From contig DMTS01000056.1 in assembly GCA_003477045.1 (NCBI GenBank), forward strand, positions 41,378 through 105,377: a stretch of DNA of 64,000 nucleotides, in the 5' to 3' direction. Below are positions 17,587 to 40,047 of the stretch, one piece after another. Each line of letters opens with the position of its first letter. The first letter of the stretch is position 1. Both the position numbers and the translations under genes were made by a program. Origin of the DNA: Candidatus Delongbacteria bacterium. Lineage in GTDB: Bacteria; UBA4055. The notes below the pieces were generated by a model that searched no databases, was not told where the DNA came from, and saw nothing but the letters and a program-made list of their open reading frames with translations.

Positions 17587-17922
17587 ATGAACGATTTCGA
17601 TAAATTGAAAAGCCTTCTTTCTGAAGTCAGGACCGTTAAAATCGGACTGGAAAAAGACATAGCTAAGATTAATGAGTTGTACGAAACTTTCGAAGATATG
17701 AATTTTGACTGCGATGAAGAGCTCGAAGAGATAGACGAAAGGCTCGAAGAACTTCAGGACGATCTAGATGACGGCGAAGGGGACGAAAAGGAAATTAATA
17801 GTGAGATCGAAACACTGAAAAAGAACAGGGTAATGGTGGAAGAGGCTGTAGATATACTTGAACAGCTTCAGGAAGAGTTTGAAAGTATCGCAGAGATAAA
17901 CGACGAACTCGATATCGGTTGA
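17587..17922 (+). CDS. small highly acidic coiled-coil protein (hypothetical)
   Basis: The 111-aa protein has roughly 40% D+E (EELEEIDERLEELQDDLDDGEGDEKE). Its stop overlaps the start of the L,D-transpeptidase-domain gene by 4 bp. Confidence 0.4.
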   Translation: MNDFDKLKSLLSEVRTVKIGLEKDIAKINELYETFEDMNFDCDEELEEIDERLEELQDDLDDGEGDEKEINSEIETLKKNRVMVEEAVDILEQLQEEFESIAEINDELDIG

Positions 17923-18374
17923 TAAAAATGATGATCGATATATCAATTACAGAACAGAAACTGGTCTTCACTCATAGAAGTGTCAGGTTGATATTTCCGG
18001 TATCTACATCTAAGCACGGCGAAGGCTTCAAAGAAGGCAGCAACAAAACTCCTTTGGGAATGCACGAGGTTTGTGAAAAAATAGGCATCAGAGCCGAATC
18101 GGGAACGGTGTTCAAGGACAGGGTGAAAACAGAAAAGATAGCAGTTATAAACGGAGAAAATACTGATCTGATAACTTCACGGATCCTCAGATTAAAAGGT
18201 CTTCAGGTCAGAAACGCAAATACTTTCGAAAGGTATATTTATATACACGGTACGAATGACGAAAAAAATATCGGGGTAAAAGTATCTGCAGGTTGTGTAA
18301 GAATGAAGAACCGGGATATTATAGAATTGTTCGATCATGTAAAGATCGGGTGCAAAGTATATATACGCAGATAG
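17919..18374 (+). CDS. L,D-transpeptidase catalytic (YkuD) domain protein without a signal peptide
   Basis: The YkuD active-site block is YIYIHGTNDEKNIGVKVSAGCVRMKNRDIIELF (HG[ST]...S-x-GC[IV]R). No N-terminal hydrophobic segment is present. Confidence 0.75.
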   Translation: MIKMMIDISITEQKLVFTHRSVRLIFPVSTSKHGEGFKEGSNKTPLGMHEVCEKIGIRAESGTVFKDRVKTEKIAVINGENTDLITSRILRLKGLQVRNANTFERYIYIHGTNDEKNIGVKVSAGCVRMKNRDIIELFDHVKIGCKVYIRR

Positions 18375-18375
18375 A

Positions 18376-19632
18376 TCAGATCCCTGAAGGCTGGAAATTG
18401 TTCGCAATAACTTCGGCAGTCATATATGATATTTTTTCTTTCGTAAATCCAAAGAGTTCAGTTCCGATCCTGTTAAGAAAATCGATCTCAGCCTGAGTGA
18501 TATCATTGTCCGACAGTGCGATATTAATAAGGTAACTGAACATCATTTCAGCTTCCTGCTCTATTGAGCCGCGATTCTTTTTGGGATCAAGAAGGTTACT
18601 TATGGAATCATTAAAAATGTCGTTCACTTTTTGGCTGCCTATCATTTCGTCCAGAAACTGCTTCGGGAACAGAAGATAATTTGCCAATGTATCAATTATA
18701 GCACCGGATTCATCCCGAGTCATTTCCTTATCTATCTGGGACATAATAAGACCTGAAGAAGCTATGAATCTCATCCGGTGTACATCGGTTTCATTACCCA
18801 TAAAGAAAAATCTTTCAAGAATATTGGACATATTTTTTCTAAGCTTTTTGTCAGGATCGGTTTTTTGGTTGTTAACAGCCTTGTTGTAAACTTCTGACCG
18901 GCTGAAAATGTCAAGCGAGATTACTCTTAGAGACGGTATCGGATGAGAAATACTTTGTGCGGAAATTTCATTAATGTGAGTCTCAAGGTTAAGTTTATTC
19001 TGCCGGATAAATTCATCGAGGTCAAAATCGATAACATTTTTCGGAAGACCGGAAATTAATTTAAAGAAACTTGATATCGCTTTTTCTATATTTCTGTTGG
19101 CTAAGAGACCGAATCTGTCCGATGATAATTCGCAAAGCTTTTCCCAGAACGTGAATTTCTGCCTTAAAAGTAGGCTCGGTTCTTTATTCTGGAACAGAAA
19201 TCTCATCATCTGGCTTATTTTGTAGGTCTTTGTTACCAGATGACCTATCTCATGTCCGATGACGAATCTGAGTTCATCATCATCCATTTTATCTATTATA
19301 GTAGAATTCAGAGCTATCCTGTGCGGGTATTCTTTATAGTTGCTTGGAATTGCGAATGCGTTCATTTCTGGAGAATTCACAATAAAGAAATCGATATTGT
19401 CGGAGAACTGAAGCGTGTTTTTAACTTCATGGCAGAGGTCGTATAATTTAGGGGTCATTTCTTTAGTTATCTTGAAATTATAGCTGTCAAGGATTTTTGA
19501 ATAGCTGTCCGTTGCGTTAATCACTCGGGCATCGATAAGTAATTTAAGAATAATATTTCCGTGAATAAGCCTGTTTATCTCATCTCCGAATTTTTTCTCA
19601 AGATCGAGCCTTATGTGGTCATATTTAATCAT
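18376..19632 (-). CDS. M48-family-like zinc metallopeptidase with a C-terminal TerB-like domain, predicted cytoplasmic
   Basis: NSPEMNAFAIPS...LRFVIGHEIGHL (HExxH) is arranged as in M48/HtpX-type peptidases, and no TM helices are apparent. The C-terminal block DNDITQAEIDFLNRIGTELFGF resembles TerB/DjlA N-domain repeats. Confidence 0.55.
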   Translation of the reverse strand: MIKYDHIRLDLEKKFGDEINRLIHGNIILKLLIDARVINATDSYSKILDSYNFKITKEMTPKLYDLCHEVKNTLQFSDNIDFFIVNSPEMNAFAIPSNYKEYPHRIALNSTIIDKMDDDELRFVIGHEIGHLVTKTYKISQMMRFLFQNKEPSLLLRQKFTFWEKLCELSSDRFGLLANRNIEKAISSFFKLISGLPKNVIDFDLDEFIRQNKLNLETHINEISAQSISHPIPSLRVISLDIFSRSEVYNKAVNNQKTDPDKKLRKNMSNILERFFFMGNETDVHRMRFIASSGLIMSQIDKEMTRDESGAIIDTLANYLLFPKQFLDEMIGSQKVNDIFNDSISNLLDPKKNRGSIEQEAEMMFSYLINIALSDNDITQAEIDFLNRIGTELFGFTKEKISYMTAEVIANNFQPSGI

Positions 19633-21010
19633 CTGAGTCTCCCGCTATATGATTTTTAACTTTTTCTTTAAAATATGCACCCCTTTCTTCAAAGTTTTTG
19701 AACATATTGTAGCTTGAAGAAGCAGGGGAGAGAAGACAGACAGATCCTATGCGTGTGTATTTGAACACCAGCCTGACCACCTCGTCCAGACTTCCGCAGA
19801 AGAAACACCTGATCTGTTTGTTCTCCCACTGGATCACAGAGCTTCCGTTTCCCATAAATTCTTTAAATCCTGATCTAACAAAATCATCATACATCATTCT
19901 CCCTGTATCCGGCAGAAAGAAGATATTATCTACCGCGGTTTTTTTTAGCTCATCAGTTAGCACTGTCCAGGTTATCTCTTCCCCTCTAAAATGTCCTCCG
20001 AGTATTAAAGAACCGACAGAGTTGTCAAAAGCTTTAATCGCAGCTACTGTTGCCTGAGGGATCGTAGATATTGAATCATTGTAAAAATCAATACCTCTGT
20101 AAGTTCCGAAGAATTCAAGTCTGTGTTCAAGTCCTTTAAACTGGTAAACAGACCTGACAGCATCCTTTACATCACATCCTGCAAGCTGTGAAGCGATGAG
20201 AGCCGCACCAATATTGTACAAATTATGGATTCCCTTTAGTTCAATGCATTTAAGCGAGAGCTGGATGCTGTTGTCACAGTAATATACGATCGAAACATCA
20301 CCATCGATTATTATCTCATAGGGAAAACTTGCAGATTTTTTTTCGAGGCCTTCGAATTCTTTTATTGGAAAAATTATACGGTCGTTTTCATCCTGCATTT
20401 TAATAATATTCATCTTGGCAGAACGGTATTCTATAAAATTCTTGTAGAAATCCAAATGCTCAGGATAAACATTCAGTATGGCAGAAATATGCGGGGCTTT
20501 TTTTATGAACTGAAGCTGATGCGAAGAAAGTTCGAGTACTATTATGTTAGCATCTCCTATTTCAGGTATGATGTCGAAGACAGGCACGCCGATATTGCCT
20601 GCAAGGATCGAGTTTTTACCGCAGTCTGTGAGTATTGAATGCAGAAGAGATACCGTTGTGCTTTTGCCTTTTGTACCTGTGATTCCAATCGTTTGCGAAT
20701 TATATTCCCTTAAAAAAATGTCTGTCTGGGATGAAATAACTGCTTTGTATCTCTGAACGAAATCGTCCGAAAGTGGAATTCCGGGGCTTTTGATTATCAG
20801 ATCGAATTTATCATGTATGTGGTCGATTTCCCCTGTAATAAATCGGATCTCTTTTCCGAGTCTGAGCACATTCTTGTCATAAAGAGTGATTCTGCAGTCA
20901 TGAAAATATTTTGTAAGGAAGTCTAGAGTTGATCTGCCTTCGGTTCCGAAACCCATTATGAGTATGTTTTTTCCGCTGAAATATTTTCCGAATTTTTCTT
21001 TAATAGTCAT
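19625..21010 (-). CDS. murD: UDP-N-acetylmuramoylalanine--D-glutamate ligase
   Basis: The MurD-type N-terminal Rossmann fold is ILIMGFGTEGRSTLDFL. The Mur ligase P-loop is GITGTKGKSTT. NDSISTIPQAT corresponds to NDSKATN, and the C-terminal LLSPASSSYNMFKNFEERG corresponds to E. coli MurD LLSPACASLDQFKNFEQRG. Confidence 0.85.
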   Translation of the reverse strand: MTIKEKFGKYFSGKNILIMGFGTEGRSTLDFLTKYFHDCRITLYDKNVLRLGKEIRFITGEIDHIHDKFDLIIKSPGIPLSDDFVQRYKAVISSQTDIFLREYNSQTIGITGTKGKSTTVSLLHSILTDCGKNSILAGNIGVPVFDIIPEIGDANIIVLELSSHQLQFIKKAPHISAILNVYPEHLDFYKNFIEYRSAKMNIIKMQDENDRIIFPIKEFEGLEKKSASFPYEIIIDGDVSIVYYCDNSIQLSLKCIELKGIHNLYNIGAALIASQLAGCDVKDAVRSVYQFKGLEHRLEFFGTYRGIDFYNDSISTIPQATVAAIKAFDNSVGSLILGGHFRGEEITWTVLTDELKKTAVDNIFFLPDTGRMMYDDFVRSGFKEFMGNGSSVIQWENKQIRCFFCGSLDEVVRLVFKYTRIGSVCLLSPASSSYNMFKNFEERGAYFKEKVKNHIAGDSDD

Positions 21011-22356
21011 AAGCTCTTTATCAGTATATTTTTAAATTTTTCGGTCAGAAGATTTTCATTGTTGTATTCGTTTAAAATAACATCGAACTGATCGAGATAT
21101 AAATCCATTTTTTGTAAGTTTCTCTCTTGAAATATCTTTAACAAGTATGATAGGTCAGTGTTTTTATAATTCGAGATAGTTTTTGCCAGTGCGGAATTAA
21201 CTTCCTCTTTAGTACCGACGCATTCGAACGGCTTTACTCCGCTCAAGCCTGTAAGTTCGAAGAAAGTTTTTTCAAGATCTCTGTTGTTGAAAAGATCTTC
21301 TCCGAATATATCCAACATATCGTCGTGTGAAAGGAAAGGTGATAGTATTATATATGTGAAAAGGCACTTGGGGCAGTTGTTGCACCATATATTTGTTTTG
21401 CTTCCCGCATTGCAGCTTCTGAATGTTTTGAAATGGTTTTTATATTTTGAAAACATCTGTGCGATCTTTAATTCGTTAACAGGCCTCAGAATGCTGAAAT
21501 AATTAATATCTTTATGAATATATGCGGCAATATAGTCATGTACTGCTTTTTCGGCTTTAAAAGATTTTGAGTACTGATGATTAATTTCAATTCCGGAAAA
21601 AAAAGCGTTTCCGACGCTTGCGCTGTTTTCATTGGATAGTATAATATTTTTTTTCCCTGTAACTAACGCTGAGAGAGCTGAAATAAAAGCCAGAAGCGCT
21701 GAAAAAGGTGTATGTCCGTTTAAATAGCCTTTGCTGTTCAATTCGAGCAGCAGTCTGTCAATAGATCTTTCTACATGAAAAAATGAGCTGTAACCGGAAT
21801 TTAATACAGAATCTGTCTGCGATTTTTTCGGATTCAGTACTAGCGGAAGGCAATTCATACCTGAGAATATTTCAAGGCTGACAATAGAATCTTTTCCTCC
21901 ACCGACAGGAATTAGACACTCATCATTAAGGTAGATTTCTGATGGAGGAAAATTATTTTTATTTTCGCAATGTATTTCAAAAAGATCATTTTCTGTTGTT
22001 TCTATCCTGTTTTTGTACAAAAATTCACCAAGTCCGTTAAAGTATATCTTTTTCCAGAAATTGATCTGGTTTTCATTAAGCGAACCGCATTTAACTATTA
22101 TATAAGGGGAGCAGCAGGCCTTGTAGTAACTTATAAGTTCTATCATCCCAAGATTAAAAACTGCAGAATCTATCGAATTAAGATCAGCTTGAGAGATAAG
22201 GCAGTCCCTGTAAATTATTTCAGGCTCGAAAATAATATCGGCAGACTGTATGAAGCGGAATTTAAGTTTAAGGCACCGGTCAGAGTAGGTTTTTGTAAAA
22301 CTGTCATATATAAAAACGGGATTATCTTTTCTCAGTTCAGTGAATTTATCAGCCAT
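21007..22356 (-). CDS. QueC-like PP-loop (adenine nucleotide alpha-hydrolase superfamily) ATPase paralog with an N-terminal extension of about 140 aa
   Basis: The PP-loop CLIPVGGGKDSIVSLE is SGGxDS-type. The C-terminal Cys cluster SCNAGSKTNIWCNNCPKC (C-x9-C-x2-C-x2-C) mirrors the zinc site of the genuine QueC in this window (C-x8-C-x2-C-x2-C). It overlaps the upstream stop by 8 bp and the downstream start by 4 bp. Confidence 0.55.
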   Translation of the reverse strand: MADKFTELRKDNPVFIYDSFTKTYSDRCLKLKFRFIQSADIIFEPEIIYRDCLISQADLNSIDSAVFNLGMIELISYYKACCSPYIIVKCGSLNENQINFWKKIYFNGLGEFLYKNRIETTENDLFEIHCENKNNFPPSEIYLNDECLIPVGGGKDSIVSLEIFSGMNCLPLVLNPKKSQTDSVLNSGYSSFFHVERSIDRLLLELNSKGYLNGHTPFSALLAFISALSALVTGKKNIILSNENSASVGNAFFSGIEINHQYSKSFKAEKAVHDYIAAYIHKDINYFSILRPVNELKIAQMFSKYKNHFKTFRSCNAGSKTNIWCNNCPKCLFTYIILSPFLSHDDMLDIFGEDLFNNRDLEKTFFELTGLSGVKPFECVGTKEEVNSALAKTISNYKNTDLSYLLKIFQERNLQKMDLYLDQFDVILNEYNNENLLTEKFKNILIKSL

Positions 22357-22891
22357 CGGATTTTCTCTTTTCGAGTTCTTTGTGATCAGAGCCTATAATA
22401 ATGGTCAGGTCGATGTCAACAAGATCTTTGTTCAGTTGCATAACAACATTTTCGCTGCCCACTCCAAGCGAACGGGCCAGCTGTTTTGCGTAACGCATAT
22501 CTTCAATTCTGCTCAGAATAACAGTTTTCACATATTTTTTATCAGTATTTCCGGTTTCTCTGACATCGAAATTCATTTTTCTCAGTCTGTCTTTCCAGAC
22601 CGTAGCGATTCCGGAAGAGCCGCATCCGTTCAGAACACTTATGCGGACATTTGCCATATTGACAATTGAGGCGTTATCTGAAGTTTCTTCTCCATTTAAT
22701 GTTTTTTTCTTAAGCTCATCCTCATAATATTTGTTGGGATCATCTTTAAAAATATTTTTAAAAAAATACATGTTTTTATAAAACAGGAAAACAGTCTGAA
22801 CAGACAGCAGGGTGATTATTATCCATAGGTGCAGGTTTGTTTGCGGTTTCTGTTCCGGTGTATGTGCTTTTTTCTTAGAAATACGCATCAT
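22349..22891 (-). CDS. LytR_C (LytR cell-envelope-related C-terminal) domain membrane protein
   Basis: One TM helix (LWIIITLLSVQTVFLF) is followed by VRISVLNGCGSSGIATVWKDRLRKMNFDV and LNKDLVDIDLTIIIGSD, the typical LytR_C signature. Confidence 0.6.
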   Translation of the reverse strand: MMRISKKKAHTPEQKPQTNLHLWIIITLLSVQTVFLFYKNMYFFKNIFKDDPNKYYEDELKKKTLNGEETSDNASIVNMANVRISVLNGCGSSGIATVWKDRLRKMNFDVRETGNTDKKYVKTVILSRIEDMRYAKQLARSLGVGSENVVMQLNKDLVDIDLTIIIGSDHKELEKRKSDG

Positions 22892-22899
22892 AAAGAATC

Positions 22900-23358
22900 T
22901 TACTCTTCGTCGTTAAAATAATTATAAGGCTTAAAAGGGTCGCCGTTCATATAATCTGATGGTTTAATATTTCTGAAATCAACTCTCATTCTGAATGAGT
23001 CATTAGGTCTATAATCAAGAGTCGCCGATTTTATATAAATATCGGCAGTATTATCTTCAACGGGTCCAATTGATGAATAAGGAGTGTATGACATACCCAG
23101 GTTGAGCTTGAGAGAAAGGGGGTCGGATATTTTATAATTTATTCCTGCCACATATTCGTTTATCATAGTAGAACCTGAACTGCTGTTCGTATAGCTCATC
23201 GACAAAGAATGCGATACTGAAATTTTTGACATATCAAAAACAGATCCCTGAGAGGTTGACAACAGCTTTAGTCTGGGATCAGGCTGGAGATCAGTTCCCC
23301 TGAACTGTGAGAATAGAAGCACTGCTGCGGTAAGTACAAAAAAGAACTGCTTTTTCAT
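22900..23358 (-). CDS. small secreted beta-rich protein (hypothetical OM or periplasmic)
   Basis: The internal Met gives the signal peptide MKKQFFFVLTAAVLLFSQF. The track start at 23388 would overlap the upstream gene by 14 bp. The protein is Ser/Tyr-rich and ends with aromatic-rich PYNYFNDEE. Confidence 0.4.
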   Translation of the reverse strand: MKKQFFFVLTAAVLLFSQFRGTDLQPDPRLKLLSTSQGSVFDMSKISVSHSLSMSYTNSSSGSTMINEYVAGINYKISDPLSLKLNLGMSYTPYSSIGPVEDNTADIYIKSATLDYRPNDSFRMRVDFRNIKPSDYMNGDPFKPYNYFNDEE

Positions 23359-23374
23359 GAAATTCTCCGGTTGT

Positions 23375-24112
23375 TTAATTTCGCGCATTCATTATACTTT
23401 CCGCCTGTGCCAGTTGTTCTAAAGTATTTATACCCTGTATCTCAGTGTTGTCTTTTACAAGGTATGTTCCTACCTTTTTTTTCTGTCCCGAGAGAATACC
23501 TATCACATCTGTAAGATAATATTCTTTGCTCGCATTATCTGAAGAAATATGTTTTAATGAATTGAAGAGCTCGTTTTTGTCGATTATATATACTCCCGAG
23601 TTGATCTCTTTTATTCTTTTTTCCTCTTCACCTGCATCTTTCTGCTCGACGATCCTTAATAGATTTCCTGACCTGTCCTTTATGATCCTGCCGTATCCGA
23701 ACGGATCTTCAAACTCCGTTGTCAGCACAGTTGCGACAGAATCTGAAGTCACATGATAGTTCCTCAAGCTGATTAGTGTTTCAGGTTTGAGAAGCGGAAC
23801 ATCTCCGCATAGTATGAGTACATCACCTGTTTTGCCTTCAAGAACTTTTTCTGCCTGCATTACCGCATGTCCGGTTCCCAGCTGTTCATTCTGCACAACA
23901 TAATTTACATCCATGTCTTTTGTTGCTTCTTTTACCATTTCTCCTTTATGCCCGATTATTAGCCATATTTCATTCGAACCTGTTTCTTTTGCCTGGGCGA
24001 TTACATACTTTACCAATTCCTTTCCGTTCATCTTATTAATTACCTTCGGAAGATCGGACTTCATTCTCTTTCCTAACCCGGCAGCGAGTATAAGCGTTAT
24101 CAGATTTTTCAT
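23375..24112 (-). CDS. stand-alone GlmU N-terminal-type sugar-1-phosphate nucleotidyltransferase (UDP-GlcNAc pyrophosphorylase domain only, 245 aa)
   Basis: LILAAGLGKRMKSDLPKVINKMNGKELVKYVI...VVQNEQLGTGHAVMQA aligns closely with E. coli GlmU residues 1-230 ([21 protein letters not shown]...WVLQAEQLGTGHAMQQA). The protein ends before any hexapeptide-repeat domain. Confidence 0.8.
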   Translation of the reverse strand: MKNLITLILAAGLGKRMKSDLPKVINKMNGKELVKYVIAQAKETGSNEIWLIIGHKGEMVKEATKDMDVNYVVQNEQLGTGHAVMQAEKVLEGKTGDVLILCGDVPLLKPETLISLRNYHVTSDSVATVLTTEFEDPFGYGRIIKDRSGNLLRIVEQKDAGEEEKRIKEINSGVYIIDKNELFNSLKHISSDNASKEYYLTDVIGILSGQKKKVGTYLVKDNTEIQGINTLEQLAQAESIMNARN

Positions 24113-29725: not shown

Positions 29726-31099
29726 ATGAATGAGAACATTTTTAGAGAATATGACATAAGAGGCGTTGTAGAGACTGACTTCACGGCCGATACGGTCGTA
29801 AAGATCGGAAAAGCTTTCTCGACTTATCTTATCAAAGAAGGTTTCAAAAACTGTGTGATAGGTTACGATGCCAGGTTGTCAGCGGATTATCTTTTTTCAA
29901 CGTTCACAAACTCTTTAAGAGACTGCGGCATCGATGTCATAAGCATAGGGCAGTGCACATCGCCGATTCTTTATTTCGCCCAAATCAATTTGAATGCAGA
30001 TTCAGCTGTTATGATAACGGGATCCCACAATCCGGCAGACATGAACGGATTTAAAATGCTGACAAAAAAGACGGCATTGTATGGCGATAAGATCCAGGAC
30101 CTGAAGAACATTATTTTAAATAATGAACTTATAAGCAGACCGGAAGATGTGTCTGCGGGAACTCTAAAGCACATGTCCGTTAGGGATGAATATCTGGATT
30201 ACATGAAAAAGAACATAACTATGGGATCAAGAAAGCTCAAAATTGTGGTTGACGGGGGTAACGGAACAGGCGGGCAGATAGCTTCAGAAATATTCAGATA
30301 TTTCGGACACGAAGTAATAGAGCTTTACACTGATCCCGATGGAAGATTTCCCAACCATCATCCGGATCCGACAGTGCCGAAATATATGACTGACCTGATA
30401 AACGAAGTTAAAAGATCTAAAGCTGATCTTGGTATCGGTTATGACGGTGATGCGGACAGGATCGGAATAGTTACCGAAAAAGGAGATATGCTGTTCGGCG
30501 ATCACCTGATGATGATATTTTCAAAAGAAATTCTTTCGAGAAAACCCGGTTCAGTTATTGTCGGTGAAGTTAAATGTTCCCAAACTTTGTACGACGGAAT
30601 TGAAAAACTCGGCGGAAAAGGAATTATGTGGAAAGCAGGGCATTCACTTATAAAAGCTAAAATGAAGGAAACCGGAGCCGAACTCGGAGGAGAAGTTAGC
30701 GGACATATATTCTTCAAAGACAGATTTTTCGGACACGATGATGCTCTTTATGCGTCATTAAGGCTTCTTGAGATACTTTCAAGATCAGATATCACTATGT
30801 CCGGTCTCTTATCAGACATTCCGAAAACTATTATGACGCCGGAAATCAGACTCGACAGCGATGATAATAAAAAGTTCGAGATAGTTAAAAGAGTAACTGA
30901 ATATTTTAAAAAAGCGGGATATAAAGTTGTTGATGTTGACGGCGTAAGAATTATTTTCGACGATGGATTCGGGCTTATAAGAGCATCCAATACACAGCCT
31001 GCCCTTGTTCAGAGGTATGAAGCGTCTTCCGAAGAAAGACTTAAAGAAATTATGGAGCTTATGCAGTCGAAATTAAAGGAGATCGAGGAGGCAATTTAG
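29726..31099 (+). CDS. phosphomannomutase/phosphoglucomutase (alpha-D-phosphohexomutase)
   Basis: FREYDIRGVV, the active-site Ser loop ITGSHNPADMNGFK, the metal-binding GIGYDGDADR and the sugar-binding GGEVSGH. Confidence 0.9.
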   Translation: MNENIFREYDIRGVVETDFTADTVVKIGKAFSTYLIKEGFKNCVIGYDARLSADYLFSTFTNSLRDCGIDVISIGQCTSPILYFAQINLNADSAVMITGSHNPADMNGFKMLTKKTALYGDKIQDLKNIILNNELISRPEDVSAGTLKHMSVRDEYLDYMKKNITMGSRKLKIVVDGGNGTGGQIASEIFRYFGHEVIELYTDPDGRFPNHHPDPTVPKYMTDLINEVKRSKADLGIGYDGDADRIGIVTEKGDMLFGDHLMMIFSKEILSRKPGSVIVGEVKCSQTLYDGIEKLGGKGIMWKAGHSLIKAKMKETGAELGGEVSGHIFFKDRFFGHDDALYASLRLLEILSRSDITMSGLLSDIPKTIMTPEIRLDSDDNKKFEIVKRVTEYFKKAGYKVVDVDGVRIIFDDGFGLIRASNTQPALVQRYEASSEERLKEIMELMQSKLKEIEEAI

Positions 31100-31103
31100 C
31101 GGG

Positions 31104-32648
31104 ATGTACATTTTTATGAAAAATATTTTCGTTATCCTGTTTTTAATTTCAAATTCACTTTTGATTACCGGAGAAATAAAAAAAGTCGATTATGAACATC
31201 TTCAGTCAATGTGCTTTCATGCTAATAAGCTTGTTCGCGAAAATAAATATGATACAGCCCTGTACTTTTACGACAGCATTTTTGAATATATAGATTCAAT
31301 CGAATCCGAAACAGGCGAAACCACTACGGCTGAATTCGATTCTCTAAAAGAAGAAATTACAAACCATTATTCAAACTTTGAGAAGATAGTTGTAGATCTT
31401 AATTTAACATTCGATACTGAAGATAAATTGTCTTGTTTTGACAAAAAAGATTTCAATCTTATAAAAAAAGATTCCGCACGTAATGAATACACGCCTTTCC
31501 CGCATCATACGGGAATAAAGAAGGTTAATAAGTGGATAGATCTCTATACTAATAAAAGAAGAGAATCAGCTCAATTATACCTCGACAGATCTTCAGAATA
31601 CATTGACGATGTGAAGAAGATATTCAAACATTTTAATCTGCCTGAAGAGCTTGCCTATATACCTCTGGCTGAATCAGGGTTTTCCCCGCTTGCACATTCG
31701 TTCGCAAAAGCGATAGGACTCTGGCAGTTCATTCCTTCTACAGGGAGGGTATTCGGACTAAACTCCAACTGGTGGGAAGATGAAAGAAAGAATGTAATTA
31801 AATCGACTATAGCTGCAGCTCAATATTATATATATCTGTTCAACAAACTCAACGATTGGGATCTTGTTCTGGCTGGGTACAACTGCGGAGATGTCAGAGT
31901 TCAGAGAATTATAAAGAAGCACAAGACGAACGATTTCTGGTCATTATATTCGCTTCCTAAAGAGACAAAGGATTATGTTCCGAGAGTAAAAGCGCTTATC
32001 AGTATTGGTAAAAACCCGGAAAAATATGGATTTACGGTTGAAAAGGAACTTTTCAGACATGATACTGTAATGCTGGACAGTTGCGTTAATCTTAATGTAA
32101 TAGCGCAATCGGCCGACATAGATTATGAAGAATTAAAAAGGCTTAATCCTCATTTGAGGCAGTGGTGCCTTCCGCCCTATGCAGAGAATTACTCAGTGAT
32201 AATTCCTGCACACTCTAAAATAAAATTCAGAAATAAGTTTTCCAAATTTTCTCATAAAGAAAAATATTCTGTGGTCTCATATAAGGTAAAAAAAGGTGAT
32301 ACGTTAGAAAAGATCGCTGAAACGTTTAAAGTCAATCCCGAGTCTATTATAGATCTAAATTCGATTACAAGACACAACTTAACTCCCGGCCAGTTCATAA
32401 AAGTCATTGAAGTACCTATGAAAGAAAAATGGTTTAACGATTTTAATAAAAAATACCTGACATACAATGACGGGGAAGAGTACTACAAAGATGGAAAAAA
32501 GAAAATAATTTATAAAGTAAAAAGCGGTGATAACCTTTCAATGATATCAAAAAAACATAAAATTAAGCTTACCAAGTTGAAAGCATGGAATAAAATCGGG
32601 AAAAACAATAAGATACTTGCCGGTCAGAATCTTGTAATTTATCTATAA
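31104..32648 (+). CDS. membrane-bound lytic murein transglycosylase (SLT domain) with two C-terminal LysM domains (MltD-like)
   Basis: The SLT catalytic block is AESGFSPLAHSFAKAIGLWQFIPSTG...AGYNCG. The LysM units are YKVKKGDTLEKIAETF and YKVKSGDNLSMISKKH. Confidence 0.85.
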   Translation: MYIFMKNIFVILFLISNSLLITGEIKKVDYEHLQSMCFHANKLVRENKYDTALYFYDSIFEYIDSIESETGETTTAEFDSLKEEITNHYSNFEKIVVDLNLTFDTEDKLSCFDKKDFNLIKKDSARNEYTPFPHHTGIKKVNKWIDLYTNKRRESAQLYLDRSSEYIDDVKKIFKHFNLPEELAYIPLAESGFSPLAHSFAKAIGLWQFIPSTGRVFGLNSNWWEDERKNVIKSTIAAAQYYIYLFNKLNDWDLVLAGYNCGDVRVQRIIKKHKTNDFWSLYSLPKETKDYVPRVKALISIGKNPEKYGFTVEKELFRHDTVMLDSCVNLNVIAQSADIDYEELKRLNPHLRQWCLPPYAENYSVIIPAHSKIKFRNKFSKFSHKEKYSVVSYKVKKGDTLEKIAETFKVNPESIIDLNSITRHNLTPGQFIKVIEVPMKEKWFNDFNKKYLTYNDGEEYYKDGKKKIIYKVKSGDNLSMISKKHKIKLTKLKAWNKIGKNNKILAGQNLVIYL

Positions 32649-39372: not shown

Positions 39373-40047
39373 CTGAAAAAAGCGGTTGTTCTTCTATCGG
39401 GAGGTCTTGATTCGACGACCTGTTTGGCAATAGCTAAAAATCAAGGATTTGAGATACATGCGCTTTCTTTCGATTACGGGCAGAAACATGCATGCGAGCT
39501 AAAGTATGCAAGATTCAATGCCAGAAAATTCAAGGCAGAAGAACACAGGATCGTTAAGCTTGACAGAAAATTTTTCTTAAATTCAGCTCTGACCGATAAA
39601 AATATCGAAGTCAAAAAAGGCAGCTATTCCGAAAAAGAAATACCTCTTACTTATGTGCCGGCAAGAAATACCGTTTTTCTGAGTTATGCCCTTGCTTATG
39701 TGGAGACTATAAAAGCAGAACATATTTTCATCGGGGTAAACAGCATTGATTATTCAGGATATCCCGACTGCAGGCCGGAGTTTATTTCCGCATACGAAAA
39801 AATGGCTAATCTTGCGCTGAAAGAAGTTGTTGAAAAAAAAATGAAAATCATAATTGAAACGCCTCTGATGTTTCTCACAAAATCAGAAATAATCATTATC
39901 GGAAAAAAACTCGGAATAGATTATTCAAAGACGATATCATGTTATGACCCTGTTGACGGAAAAGCTTGCGGGCATTGCGACAGCTGTCTTTTAAGAAAAA
40001 GGGGTTTTGAAGGTTCGGGATATAAAGACGAGACAGTTTATGTTTAA
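39373..40047 (+). CDS. queC: 7-cyano-7-deazaguanine synthase
   Basis: (L)KKAVVLLSGGLDSTTCL is the PP-loop. YVPARNTVFLSYALAYVE and the zinc site CYDPVDGKACGHCDSC are present. The frame opens at 39340 with no ATG or GTG; the CTG at 39373 sits 5 nt after a perfect SD GGGAGG, and the track uses TTG at 39424. Confidence 0.85.
   Translation: MKKAVVLLSGGLDSTTCLAIAKNQGFEIHALSFDYGQKHACELKYARFNARKFKAEEHRIVKLDRKFFLNSALTDKNIEVKKGSYSEKEIPLTYVPARNTVFLSYALAYVETIKAEHIFIGVNSIDYSGYPDCRPEFISAYEKMANLALKEVVEKKMKIIIETPLMFLTKSEIIIIGKKLGIDYSKTISCYDPVDGKACGHCDSCLLRKRGFEGSGYKDETVYV

Follow-up and report, generated by a model that had tools for sequence, protein, structure and literature searches.

The stretch of DNA analysed here, called the window below, is 64 kb long. 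On its reverse strand lies a run of overlapping genes, and the subject of this analysis is an open reading frame in that run that encodes 449 amino acids from an ATG start (21007..22356, reverse strand). Its start is overlapped by 8 bp by an operon neighbour, a gene for a membrane protein with a LytR_C domain (22349..22891, reverse strand; PF13399, 49.7 bits). Its end shares 4 bp, ATGA, with murD (19625..21010, reverse strand; TIGR01087, 286.7 bits), whose product is the sole Mur ligase within the 64-kb window. The last gene of the run, which overlaps murD by 8 bp, encodes an M48 peptidase joined to a TerB-like protein (18376..19632, reverse strand; PF01435, 54.7 bits; TerB, E=2.8e-4). The surroundings also hold panBC. 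A genuine QueC is encoded on the forward strand (39373..40047; PF06508, 259 bits; TIGR00364, 208 bits), with SGGLDS at residue 9 and a C190-x8-C-x2-C-x2-C cluster. The original prediction for this locus had named the frame, its PP-loop, its cysteine cluster, the genuine QueC and both overlaps of the frame with its neighbours, and all of these are real.

That prediction had also allowed, beforehand, that the 449-aa protein might score best to a known family. It does. Judged by its sequence, the protein is a member of the MurL family, a known enzyme, and not an unknown QueC paralog. The NCBIfam model for MurL, NF041275, matches residues 26-420 over profile positions 21-419 of 447 (E=1.2e-77, 261 bits), a score far under the equivalog cut-off of 700 bits, which is tuned to Xanthomonadales; by NCBI's own rule for this model, the Delongbacteria protein would not automatically be named MurL. 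Precomputed Pfam annotation of the identical protein gives MurL_N and MurL_epimerase_C (PF26299 and PF26298). The annotated MurL of X. sacchari is 31% identical to the window protein over 323 aa (E=2e-58), with all motifs in common.

The N-terminal extension of about 140 residues, described earlier as novel and unrecognisable, is in fact the conserved Pfam domain MurL_N, which occupies residues 1-143 (21928..22356, reverse strand) and has Y77, K79, G108, L109 and E111 as family-invariant residues. The sequence looked unrecognisable because the Pfam copy that was scanned had no MurL models; that scan returned only a sub-threshold match to DUF6395. A search of PDB sequences with MurL gave zero matches at E<=10, and therefore no MurL structure has been solved. 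The AF2 model of the window MurL has a pLDDT of 92.8. As to labels, NCBIfam, Pfam and JGI already call the protein MurL, and the NCBI record calls it a "hypothetical protein."

Three motifs stand out in MurL. Residues 150-157 read PVGGGKDS, and within them G152-G-G-K-D-S157 (21886..21903, reverse strand) is a variant of the SGGxDS PP-loop that hhalign places on the SGGLDS of QueC; the corresponding stretch of Xanthomonas MurL reads AIGGGKDS. The second motif is a Cys4 cluster, C315-x9-C325-x2-C328-x2-C331 (21364..21414, reverse strand), a putative structural zinc site. Residues G152, G153, G154, D156 and S157 and all four cysteines do not vary across an alignment with members from Delongbacteria, Bacteroidota, Xanthomonas and Pseudonocardia, and motifs that an alignment finds so invariant are not there by chance. 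The third is KPFECVG, in which C379 (21220..21222, reverse strand) is a candidate catalytic acid/base; K375, P376, C379 and G381 stay unchanged all the way from Delongbacteria to Xanthomonas and Pseudonocardia.

The cysteine cluster had been placed at the C-terminus and taken as a copy of the QueC zinc site. The cluster is present, but it lies at residues 315-331 of 449, well inside the chain. Likewise, the C-x9 variant is there, but the first spacer is not a fixed feature of the family, being x15 in Xanthomonas MurL. What does resemble QueC is the placement of the cluster relative to the PP-loop, 163 residues downstream in MurL versus 180 in QueC. In both QueC and QatC, the equivalent Cys4 motif binds Zn (PMC13376578; PMC13329287).

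MurL is built on the QueC-type PP-loop ATP pyrophosphatase fold, and in expecting a QueC-like, ATP-using fold the original prediction was correct. The Rossmann-like core with a phosphate-binding loop that marks the superfamily is present, and the closest solved structures are QueC, Cap9 and QatC. The prediction went further, of course, and made the protein a paralog of the housekeeping queC product. Here the evidence turns the other way. QueC (7-cyano-7-deazaguanine synthase, PF06508, PDB 3bl5) is 12% identical to MurL, which is longer by an N-terminal domain of ~143 aa and, at the C-terminus, by a helical region of ~110 aa. The PF06508 profile does not match MurL at E<=1, and the window QueC has no detectable similarity to it past a 19-residue stretch at the PP-loop (BLASTP E=31; hhalign probability 2.7%). 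The QueC motifs YxQxHxxE and VPxRN (PMC13329287) are present in the window QueC and absent from MurL. With sequence homology limited to the PP-loop, a recent paralog of queC was ruled out.

The same comparisons bear on the view that the protein is a QueC-family paralog at work in 7-deazaguanine chemistry or, as QatC and Cap9 are, in anti-phage defence, and that it sits beside murD by coincidence. Its nearest solved structures are those of just such enzymes, and the layout of QatC is the same, with an N-terminal region of ~150 aa, a PP-loop at 156-161 and a Cys4 cluster at 332-358. Nevertheless, the TM-scores of QatC and Cap9 (QatABCD and type IV CBASS; PDB 9y02 and 9nto) to MurL are only 0.41-0.43, and these two proteins join the carboxylate of a deazaguanine to the N-terminus of a protein; the substrate of MurL is a nucleotide precursor of the cell wall. 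Neither que genes nor genes for QatA/B/D or a CD-NTase are adjacent to murL. PADLOC profiles gave no match to MurL at E<=10, on which ground a defence-system role was rejected. The two QueC substrate motifs are missing, PF06508 is silent, and the adjacency to murD is conserved across phyla and extends to fusions with other Mur proteins. Against all of this, such a paralog with a coincidental position beside murD is scarcely credible.

The linkage to murD, which the original prediction had made much of, is functional and conserved. In 73 of 80 loci, murD lies directly downstream of murL on the same strand; two of the seven loci that miss it have no downstream sequence, which leaves 78 testable loci. 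The loci with this order come from Delongbacteria, Bacteroidota, Clostridia, Bacilli and one CPR genome, and Xanthomonas keeps it as well, with overlapping genes. The two proteins are often a single chain: 38 of 40 long representatives of the family are MurL+MurD fusions, and fusions of MurL to MurE and to MurB also exist. The LytR_C gene, which had been given a part in the same argument, is found upstream of murL at only 2 of the 80 loci, both in other Delongbacteria; it is lineage-specific context, outside the conserved murL-murD pair.

The family itself is large. It comprises about 3,500 clusters at 50% identity and occurs in at least 597 GTDB species, among them gut and rumen Bacteroidales, Clostridia and Bacilli. 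Some Bacteroidales (Parabacteroides) also carry a canonical murD in the dcw cluster, and given this second gene the route may, in some carriers, be a redundant one.

A route to peptidoglycan D-Glu through MurD2 and MurL was described in 2017 (reviewed in PMC8788868 and PMC5808125), and the family bears its name in three annotation resources; the earlier belief that nothing of the kind had been described does not hold. In the characterised systems, from Xanthomonas, Micromonospora and Salinispora, MurD2 ligates L-Glu, and MurL epimerises that L-Glu to D-Glu on the cell-wall precursor, in one direction only and with conversion of ATP to AMP. The published distribution consists of Xanthomonadales, a few Alphaproteobacteria and Micromonosporaceae; the host here is a Candidatus Delongbacteria MAG, and its MurL is only ~31% identical to the characterised clade. 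The Xanthomonas and window MurLs have the two-domain architecture in common, together with GGGKDS, NGHxP, SNExSA, NHQxSK, the Cys4 cluster and KPFECVG. The same stereocentre is supplied elsewhere by MurI, a cofactor-independent two-Cys racemase of unrelated fold that acts reversibly on free Glu without ATP; MurL differs from it in ATP use, in substrate and in fold.

Thus, the best explanation of 21007..22356 and 19625..21010 is, with high probability, that they encode a MurL/MurD2 pair, which would form a route to peptidoglycan D-Glu that needs no glutamate racemase. The Delongbacteria pair would have the same activities as the characterised enzymes.

This reading asks that the adjacent MurD add L-Glu, and three positions suggest that it is probably a MurD2-type ligase that does so. 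The first is E184 (20459..20461, reverse strand), at the position of D182 in E. coli MurD and E197 in X. oryzae MurD2, within a PEHLD motif common to X. sacchari MurD2; glutamate occurs there in 65 of 69 MurL-linked MurDs and 32 of 38 fused ones, and in none of nine unlinked control MurDs. The second is I314 (20069..20071, reverse strand), at the position of E. coli K319, in an NDSIST motif also common to X. sacchari MurD2. Isoleucine is found there in 68 of the 69 linked MurDs, and lysine in eight of the nine controls. The third, R342 (19985..19987, reverse strand), corresponds to E. coli K348 and MurD2 R358; arginine is found in all 69 linked and 37 of 38 fused MurDs, while seven of the nine controls have lysine and only two Bacilli controls have arginine. 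The full E/I/R combination is present in the window MurD and in X. sacchari MurD2, and in 0/9 of the unlinked controls. PEHLD and NDSIST make up, with GGHxRG, a signature common to the window MurD and Xanthomonas MurD2. The three positions have been probed by experiment: the E197D/R358K change in X. oryzae MurD2 switched its specificity to D-Glu, and E. coli MurD K319T accepts L-Glu (PMC8788868).

Other comparisons of the two MurD types are less telling. In place of P433 and F435 of MurD2, the window MurD has S and Y, at positions that the literature reports not to determine specificity. An aromatic residue at the position of E. coli L416 was rejected as a MurD2 marker, the controls having F or W there too. 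Overall similarity proved uninformative as a test: the window MurD is 25.6% identical to X. sacchari MurD2 (147 bits) and 28.5% identical to E. coli MurD (149 bits). With these scores equal, the MurD2 call rests on the three signature positions and the linkage.

That balance in overall similarity gives some room to another reading, in which the protein is a true MurL but its neighbour is still a D-Glu ligase. MurL would then be an accessory, repairing precursors with mis-incorporated L-Glu or acting on some other UDP-MurNAc-peptide, and D-Glu would come from a MurI encoded elsewhere. The window MurD does pass the cut-off of TIGR01087, "D-glutamate ligase," and some murL genes have no adjacent murD (5/78 loci, and those on Pseudonocardia plasmids). 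In a search that covered the 64-kb window and its flanks, no MurI homologue was found (best E=1.4 in the window), a negative that is weak for the genome as a whole. Yet TIGR01087 cannot tell the two types apart, since X. sacchari MurD2, too, goes by the name of D-Glu ligase at NCBI. The E/I/R residues match MurD2 and no control, and a double mutation at two of these very positions flips specificity. Further, the two genes are translationally coupled and often fused, which speaks for an obligate pair that works in two steps. We consider the accessory role unlikely.

For the MurL/MurD2 pair, the following mechanism may be proposed. The MurD2-type MurD would add L-Glu to the precursor, and MurL would flip that residue to D-Glu, using one ATP and releasing AMP, in one direction only. 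The core of MurL would act as a QueC-type PP-loop ATP pyrophosphatase (GGGKDS and the putative Cys4 zinc site), joined to the family-specific N-terminal domain. It would adenylate an oxygen of the Glu alpha-carboxylate, with release of PPi, as other PP-loop enzymes do. The acyl-adenylate would, in turn, make the C-alpha proton more acidic, an effect that an oxazolone closed with the carbonyl of the preceding Ala could also have. Acid/base groups of the enzyme would invert the centre, and invariant C379, H215, H260, K264 and E243 are candidates. Finally, water would take the place of the N or S nucleophile used by other PP-loop members, giving AMP and the D-product. The original prediction had guessed that the protein acts on the alpha-carboxylate of the Glu added by MurD, and this is the probable site of action. 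PP-loop enzymes in general transfer AMP to a carboxyl or keto oxygen, with PPi as the leaving group (PMC13376578), which matches both the published formation of AMP by MurL and the alpha-carboxylate adenylation proposed here.

The original prediction had drawn a different chemistry from the same site, with the enzyme converting a carboxylate of the peptidoglycan precursor, for example the D-Glu alpha-carboxyl, to an amide (iso-Gln) independently of MurT/GatD. The first step would be identical, alpha-carboxylate adenylation; QueC, Cap9 and nitrile synthetase, whose fold the protein has, each combine an adenylated carboxylate with an N nucleophile; and the gene is, of course, linked to murD. Amidation, however, needs a source of nitrogen. 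MurT/GatD and AsnB/LtsA, whose targets are carboxylates of that stem peptide, need a glutaminase, and MurL has no glutaminase, Asn_synthase or GATase domain and no adjacent partner with one; the nearest GATase gene, a PurF-like one, lies ~4.6 kb from murL on the opposite strand. Characterised members of the family epimerise with only ATP/Mg2+ and do not need ammonia. The L-Glu-type signature of the partner MurD creates a need for an epimerase, not an amidase, and the substrate motifs of QueC are, again, absent. Where QueC forms an amide or a nitrile, MurL, which works on a UDP-sugar-peptide, would invert a stereocentre, and hydrolysis would follow. Amidation is, accordingly, very improbable.

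A broader proposal can be made, tentatively. MurL may be a PP-loop ATP pyrophosphatase, derived from the QueC/QatC scaffold, that puts carboxylate adenylation to use in inverting a stereocentre instead of in making a C-N or C-S bond, and so the first PP-loop epimerase; MurD2 and MurL may also rank as a main supplier of peptidoglycan D-Glu, and perhaps the sole one, across Delongbacteria and large parts of Bacteroidota and Bacillota. Taken together, this is possible rather than probable. In the openly accessible literature, no fold or PP-loop assignment for MurL was found, nor was either the PP-loop-epimerase or the wide-distribution reading, though papers in subscription journals or a Pfam clan assignment may contain them. 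[quoted passage not shown] The residual novelty, which is modest, lies in the fold assignment and in a distribution far wider than published accounts give.

These results resolve a "hypothetical protein" into a known enzyme, MurL. Its neighbour is probably misnamed: enzymes of MurD2 type are called "D-glutamate ligase" by TIGR01087 and NCBI, although the characterised ones ligate L-Glu. The placement of MurL among QueC-type PP-loop proteins gives a structural reason for its unusual need to convert ATP to AMP, and it offers concrete residues to mutate in an enzyme whose mechanism its discoverers called unclear. MurL is also distributed far more widely than the "relatively few genera" of the literature. 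In a family this wide, inhibitors of MurL would therefore be less narrow in their action than has been supposed.

Xanthomonas oryzae has neither a glutamate racemase nor a D-amino-acid aminotransferase, and uses two adjacent genes instead, as described by the Dairi group (PMC8788868, PMC5808125). Here, a MurD-type ligase (MurD2) adds L-Glu, and MurL (XOO_1319) is an epimerase that turns the terminal L-Glu into D-Glu, using one ATP, forming AMP, and working in the L-to-D direction only; that MurL does this by adenylating the alpha-carboxylate is the hypothesis of the same group (PMC8788868, PMC5808125). The group also showed that E197D/R358K makes MurD2 a D-Glu ligase, and that E. coli MurD accepts L-Glu after K319T (PMC8788868). 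The murL-murD pair of the window is, with high probability, a MurL/MurD2 pair that works in this way.

The 449-aa ORF at 21007..22356 (minus strand) was confirmed. Its product matches the NCBIfam model for MurL, UDP-N-acetyl-alpha-D-muramoyl-L-alanyl-L-glutamate epimerase, over residues 26-420 (E=1.2e-77), and the Pfam domains precomputed for the identical protein are PF26299 (MurL_N) and PF26298 (MurL_epimerase_C). The N-terminal residues (about 140) that the original prediction took for a novel extension are instead a conserved domain, MurL_N. A Pfam-A version lacking these two models gave nothing significant, only a sub-threshold match to DUF6395; a "no Pfam hit" result thus reflects the version of the library. 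A Candidatus Delongbacteria MAG has a 100% identical protein labelled "hypothetical protein", and several close relatives are named as MurL epimerase by JGI. In the X. sacchari record, an annotated murL is followed by an overlapping murD, the same gene order as in the window. The two MurL proteins share 31% identity (E=2e-58) and the motifs GGGKDS, NGHxP, SNExSAS, NHQxSK, SCN, WCxxCPKC, and KPFECVG.

The PP-loop (PVGGGKDS, residues 150-157) and the Cys cluster (C315-x9-C325-x2-C328-x2-C331) are real features. Alignments running from Delongbacteria to Xanthomonas and Pseudonocardia show no variation in the loop glycines, D156, S157, or any of the four cysteines, implying that these motifs are under selection. 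A genuine QueC does lie elsewhere in the window (39373..40047; PF06508, 259 bits; SGGLDS; C-x8-C-x2-C-x2-C), and MurL was said to copy its Cys spacing. The cluster is present, but its first spacer is not fixed, being x9 in the window protein and x15 in Xanthomonas.

The overlaps of the murL stop with the start of murD (19625..21010, minus strand; ATGA) and of the murL start with the stop of the LytR_C gene (8 bp) were also borne out. They belong to a minus-strand string, panB-panC-NTP_transferase-orf162-LytR_C-murL-murD-M48, in which all gaps are at most 16 bp. The last gene (18376..19632, minus strand) encodes a 418-aa M48 peptidase with a TerB-like domain, and overlaps murD by 8 bp, a translational coupling. 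Upstream of LytR_C in the same operon are genes, overlapping by 14 bp, for a 162-aa protein (22900..23388, minus strand) with a signal-peptide-like N-terminus and only a weak beta-barrel porin match (E=0.19), and for a 245-aa nucleotidyltransferase resembling the GlmU N-terminal domain (23375..24112, minus strand). Cell-envelope genes are abundant around the operon. A YkuD L,D-transpeptidase (17919..18374, plus strand) converges on it, and a few kb upstream are genes for a GlmM-like phosphohexomutase and for a lytic transglycosylase of SLT+LysM type (about 29726..32356, plus strand; range converted from locus record L084).

Is the window MurD, the only Mur ligase of the window, a MurD2? Overall similarity does not discriminate, as it scores 147 bits against MurD2 and 149 bits against E. 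coli MurD. The window protein was aligned with E. coli MurD and X. sacchari MurD2, and three specificity positions were compared (E. coli 182, 319, and 348). The window MurD has PEHLD (E184), NDSIST (I314), and GGHFRG (R342); MurD2 has PEHLD, NDSIST, and GGHDRG; E. coli MurD has EDHMD, NDSKAT, and GGDGKS. Among 69 MurL-linked MurDs, 65 have E, 68 have I, and 69 have R at these positions. In 38 MurD domains fused to MurL, E occurs in 32, I in 24 (with L in 12), and R in 37. Nine unlinked MurDs from six phyla, seven of them from dcw clusters, served as controls; none has E, one has I (K in eight), and two, both from Bacilli, have R. S. agalactiae MurD (3lk7) has T/K/R. It is thus the E/I/R combination that discriminates MurL-linked MurDs. 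An aromatic residue at E. coli L416 was rejected as a marker, since controls also have F or W there. The sole control with Ile at 319, a solo murD of Pusillibacter faecalis (L096:1971-3347) outside the dcw cluster and unlinked to murL, is intermediate (N/I/K).

The most serious rival is that MurL is an accessory or repair enzyme beside a D-Glu-specific MurD. Against this, weakly, no MurI was found within the window. At 286.7 bits, the window MurD exceeds the cut-off (212) of TIGR01087, the "D-glutamate ligase" model, and NCBI names the X. sacchari MurD2 (L082:5136-6572) a D-Glu ligase; these names probably mislabel the substrate stereochemistry of MurD2-type ligases systematically.

Among the GTDB species genomes scanned, at least 597 species have a relative, and neighbourhoods were taken from the best 80 loci, which come from Delongbacteria, Bacteroidales, Clostridia, Bacilli, Erysipelotrichaceae, and one Gottesmanbacteria genome. 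The murD linkage held: in 73 of the 80, the next gene downstream is murD, in the same orientation. Two of the other seven lack downstream sequence, and five, all Bacteroidales (loci L007, L057, L062, L064, L070), have unrelated genes. LytR_C precedes murL only in the two Delongbacteria loci among these 80, so that this linkage is lineage-specific. The dcw cluster of Parabacteroides includes a murD of the canonical D/K/K type; some Bacteroidales may therefore have both types of MurD, or a MurD2 that is not linked to murL. About 900 bp upstream of murL, one Bacteroidales locus has a weak Asp/Glu-racemase-like match (L023:4069-4404; E=3e-5 and 23% identity against E. coli MurI).

An exhaustive profile search gave 3,495 family representatives at 50% identity, 1,596 of them at E<=1e-30. 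Of the 150 best, 40 reach 780 aa or more; 36 of these are MurL-MurD and two MurD-MurL fusions. Representatives listed with natural fusions are P0121, P0128, P0125, P0132, P0140, P0127, P0212, and P0238, including MurE-MurL (P0212), MurB-MurL (P0238), and a 1247-aa MurL-MurD-amidohydrolase (P0125). Such fusions link MurL to the cytoplasmic stage at which peptidoglycan precursors are made. Mobilizable plasmids of Pseudonocardia carry MurL-like genes (27-30% identity) with no murD neighbour, as on pFRP1-2 (L083:3764-5158; also matches H3 and H4), beside genes for a WD40-repeat protein and an integrase; these may be paralogs that act on another substrate.

An AlphaFold2 model of the window MurL, built from an 18-sequence alignment, was confident (pLDDT 92.8, pTM 0.91). 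Below the top entries of its structural comparison stood the QueC-like Cap9 (12.7), then the nitrile synthetase ArtA (10.1), LarE (9.8), and argininosuccinate synthetase (9.2), with TtuA, NAD synthetase, and TilS lower still (about 8). The sole significant Foldseek match was QatC (E=2.5e-5, 430 columns), whose layout is the same, with an N-terminal region followed by the PP-loop (156-161) and the zinc Cys4 site (332-358; QatC numbering; PMC13376578). The original prediction of a QueC-like protein was thus right at the level of the fold. At the level of sequence it was not; sequence methods did not detect the fold, and MurL lacks the catalytic motifs of QueC. The model places MurL, by predicted structure, in the QueC-type PP-loop superfamily, a placement not found stated in the searchable literature; the PDB holds no MurL structure. 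A QatC/Cap9-like or deazaguanine role is contradicted by the lack of any PF06508 or PADLOC match and of fitting neighbours.

PP-loop enzymes transfer AMP to a carboxyl or keto oxygen with release of PPi, and a nucleophile then displaces the AMP (PMC13376578). Applied to MurL, this general chemistry supports the published hypothesis. MurL would adenylate the Glu alpha-carboxylate; in the activated ester, possibly through an oxazolone with the Ala carbonyl, the C-alpha proton would be lost and regained on opposite faces; hydrolysis of the adenylate by water would make the reaction irreversible. Judging from their invariance across the family, C379 (in KPFECVG), H215, H260, K264, E243, and, in the N-domain, Y77, K79, and E111 could be acid/base or substrate-binding residues. 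Amidation of a peptidoglycan-precursor carboxylate, the undescribed route first proposed, would share the initial step of this model. However, neither an ammonia-delivering domain in MurL nor a partner was found, and amidation is at odds with an L-Glu-type partner ligase. It is not supported; the pair belongs instead to a known system.

The window pair is a divergent member of that database-labelled system, from a phylum outside its published distribution. Two by-products are of modest interest: the placement of the MurL fold, and the wide distribution of the pathway. A 2021 review gave the latter as "relatively few genera" (PMC8788868). With at least 597 species and 3,495 representatives at 50% identity, the MurD2/MurL pathway is much more widespread than that.
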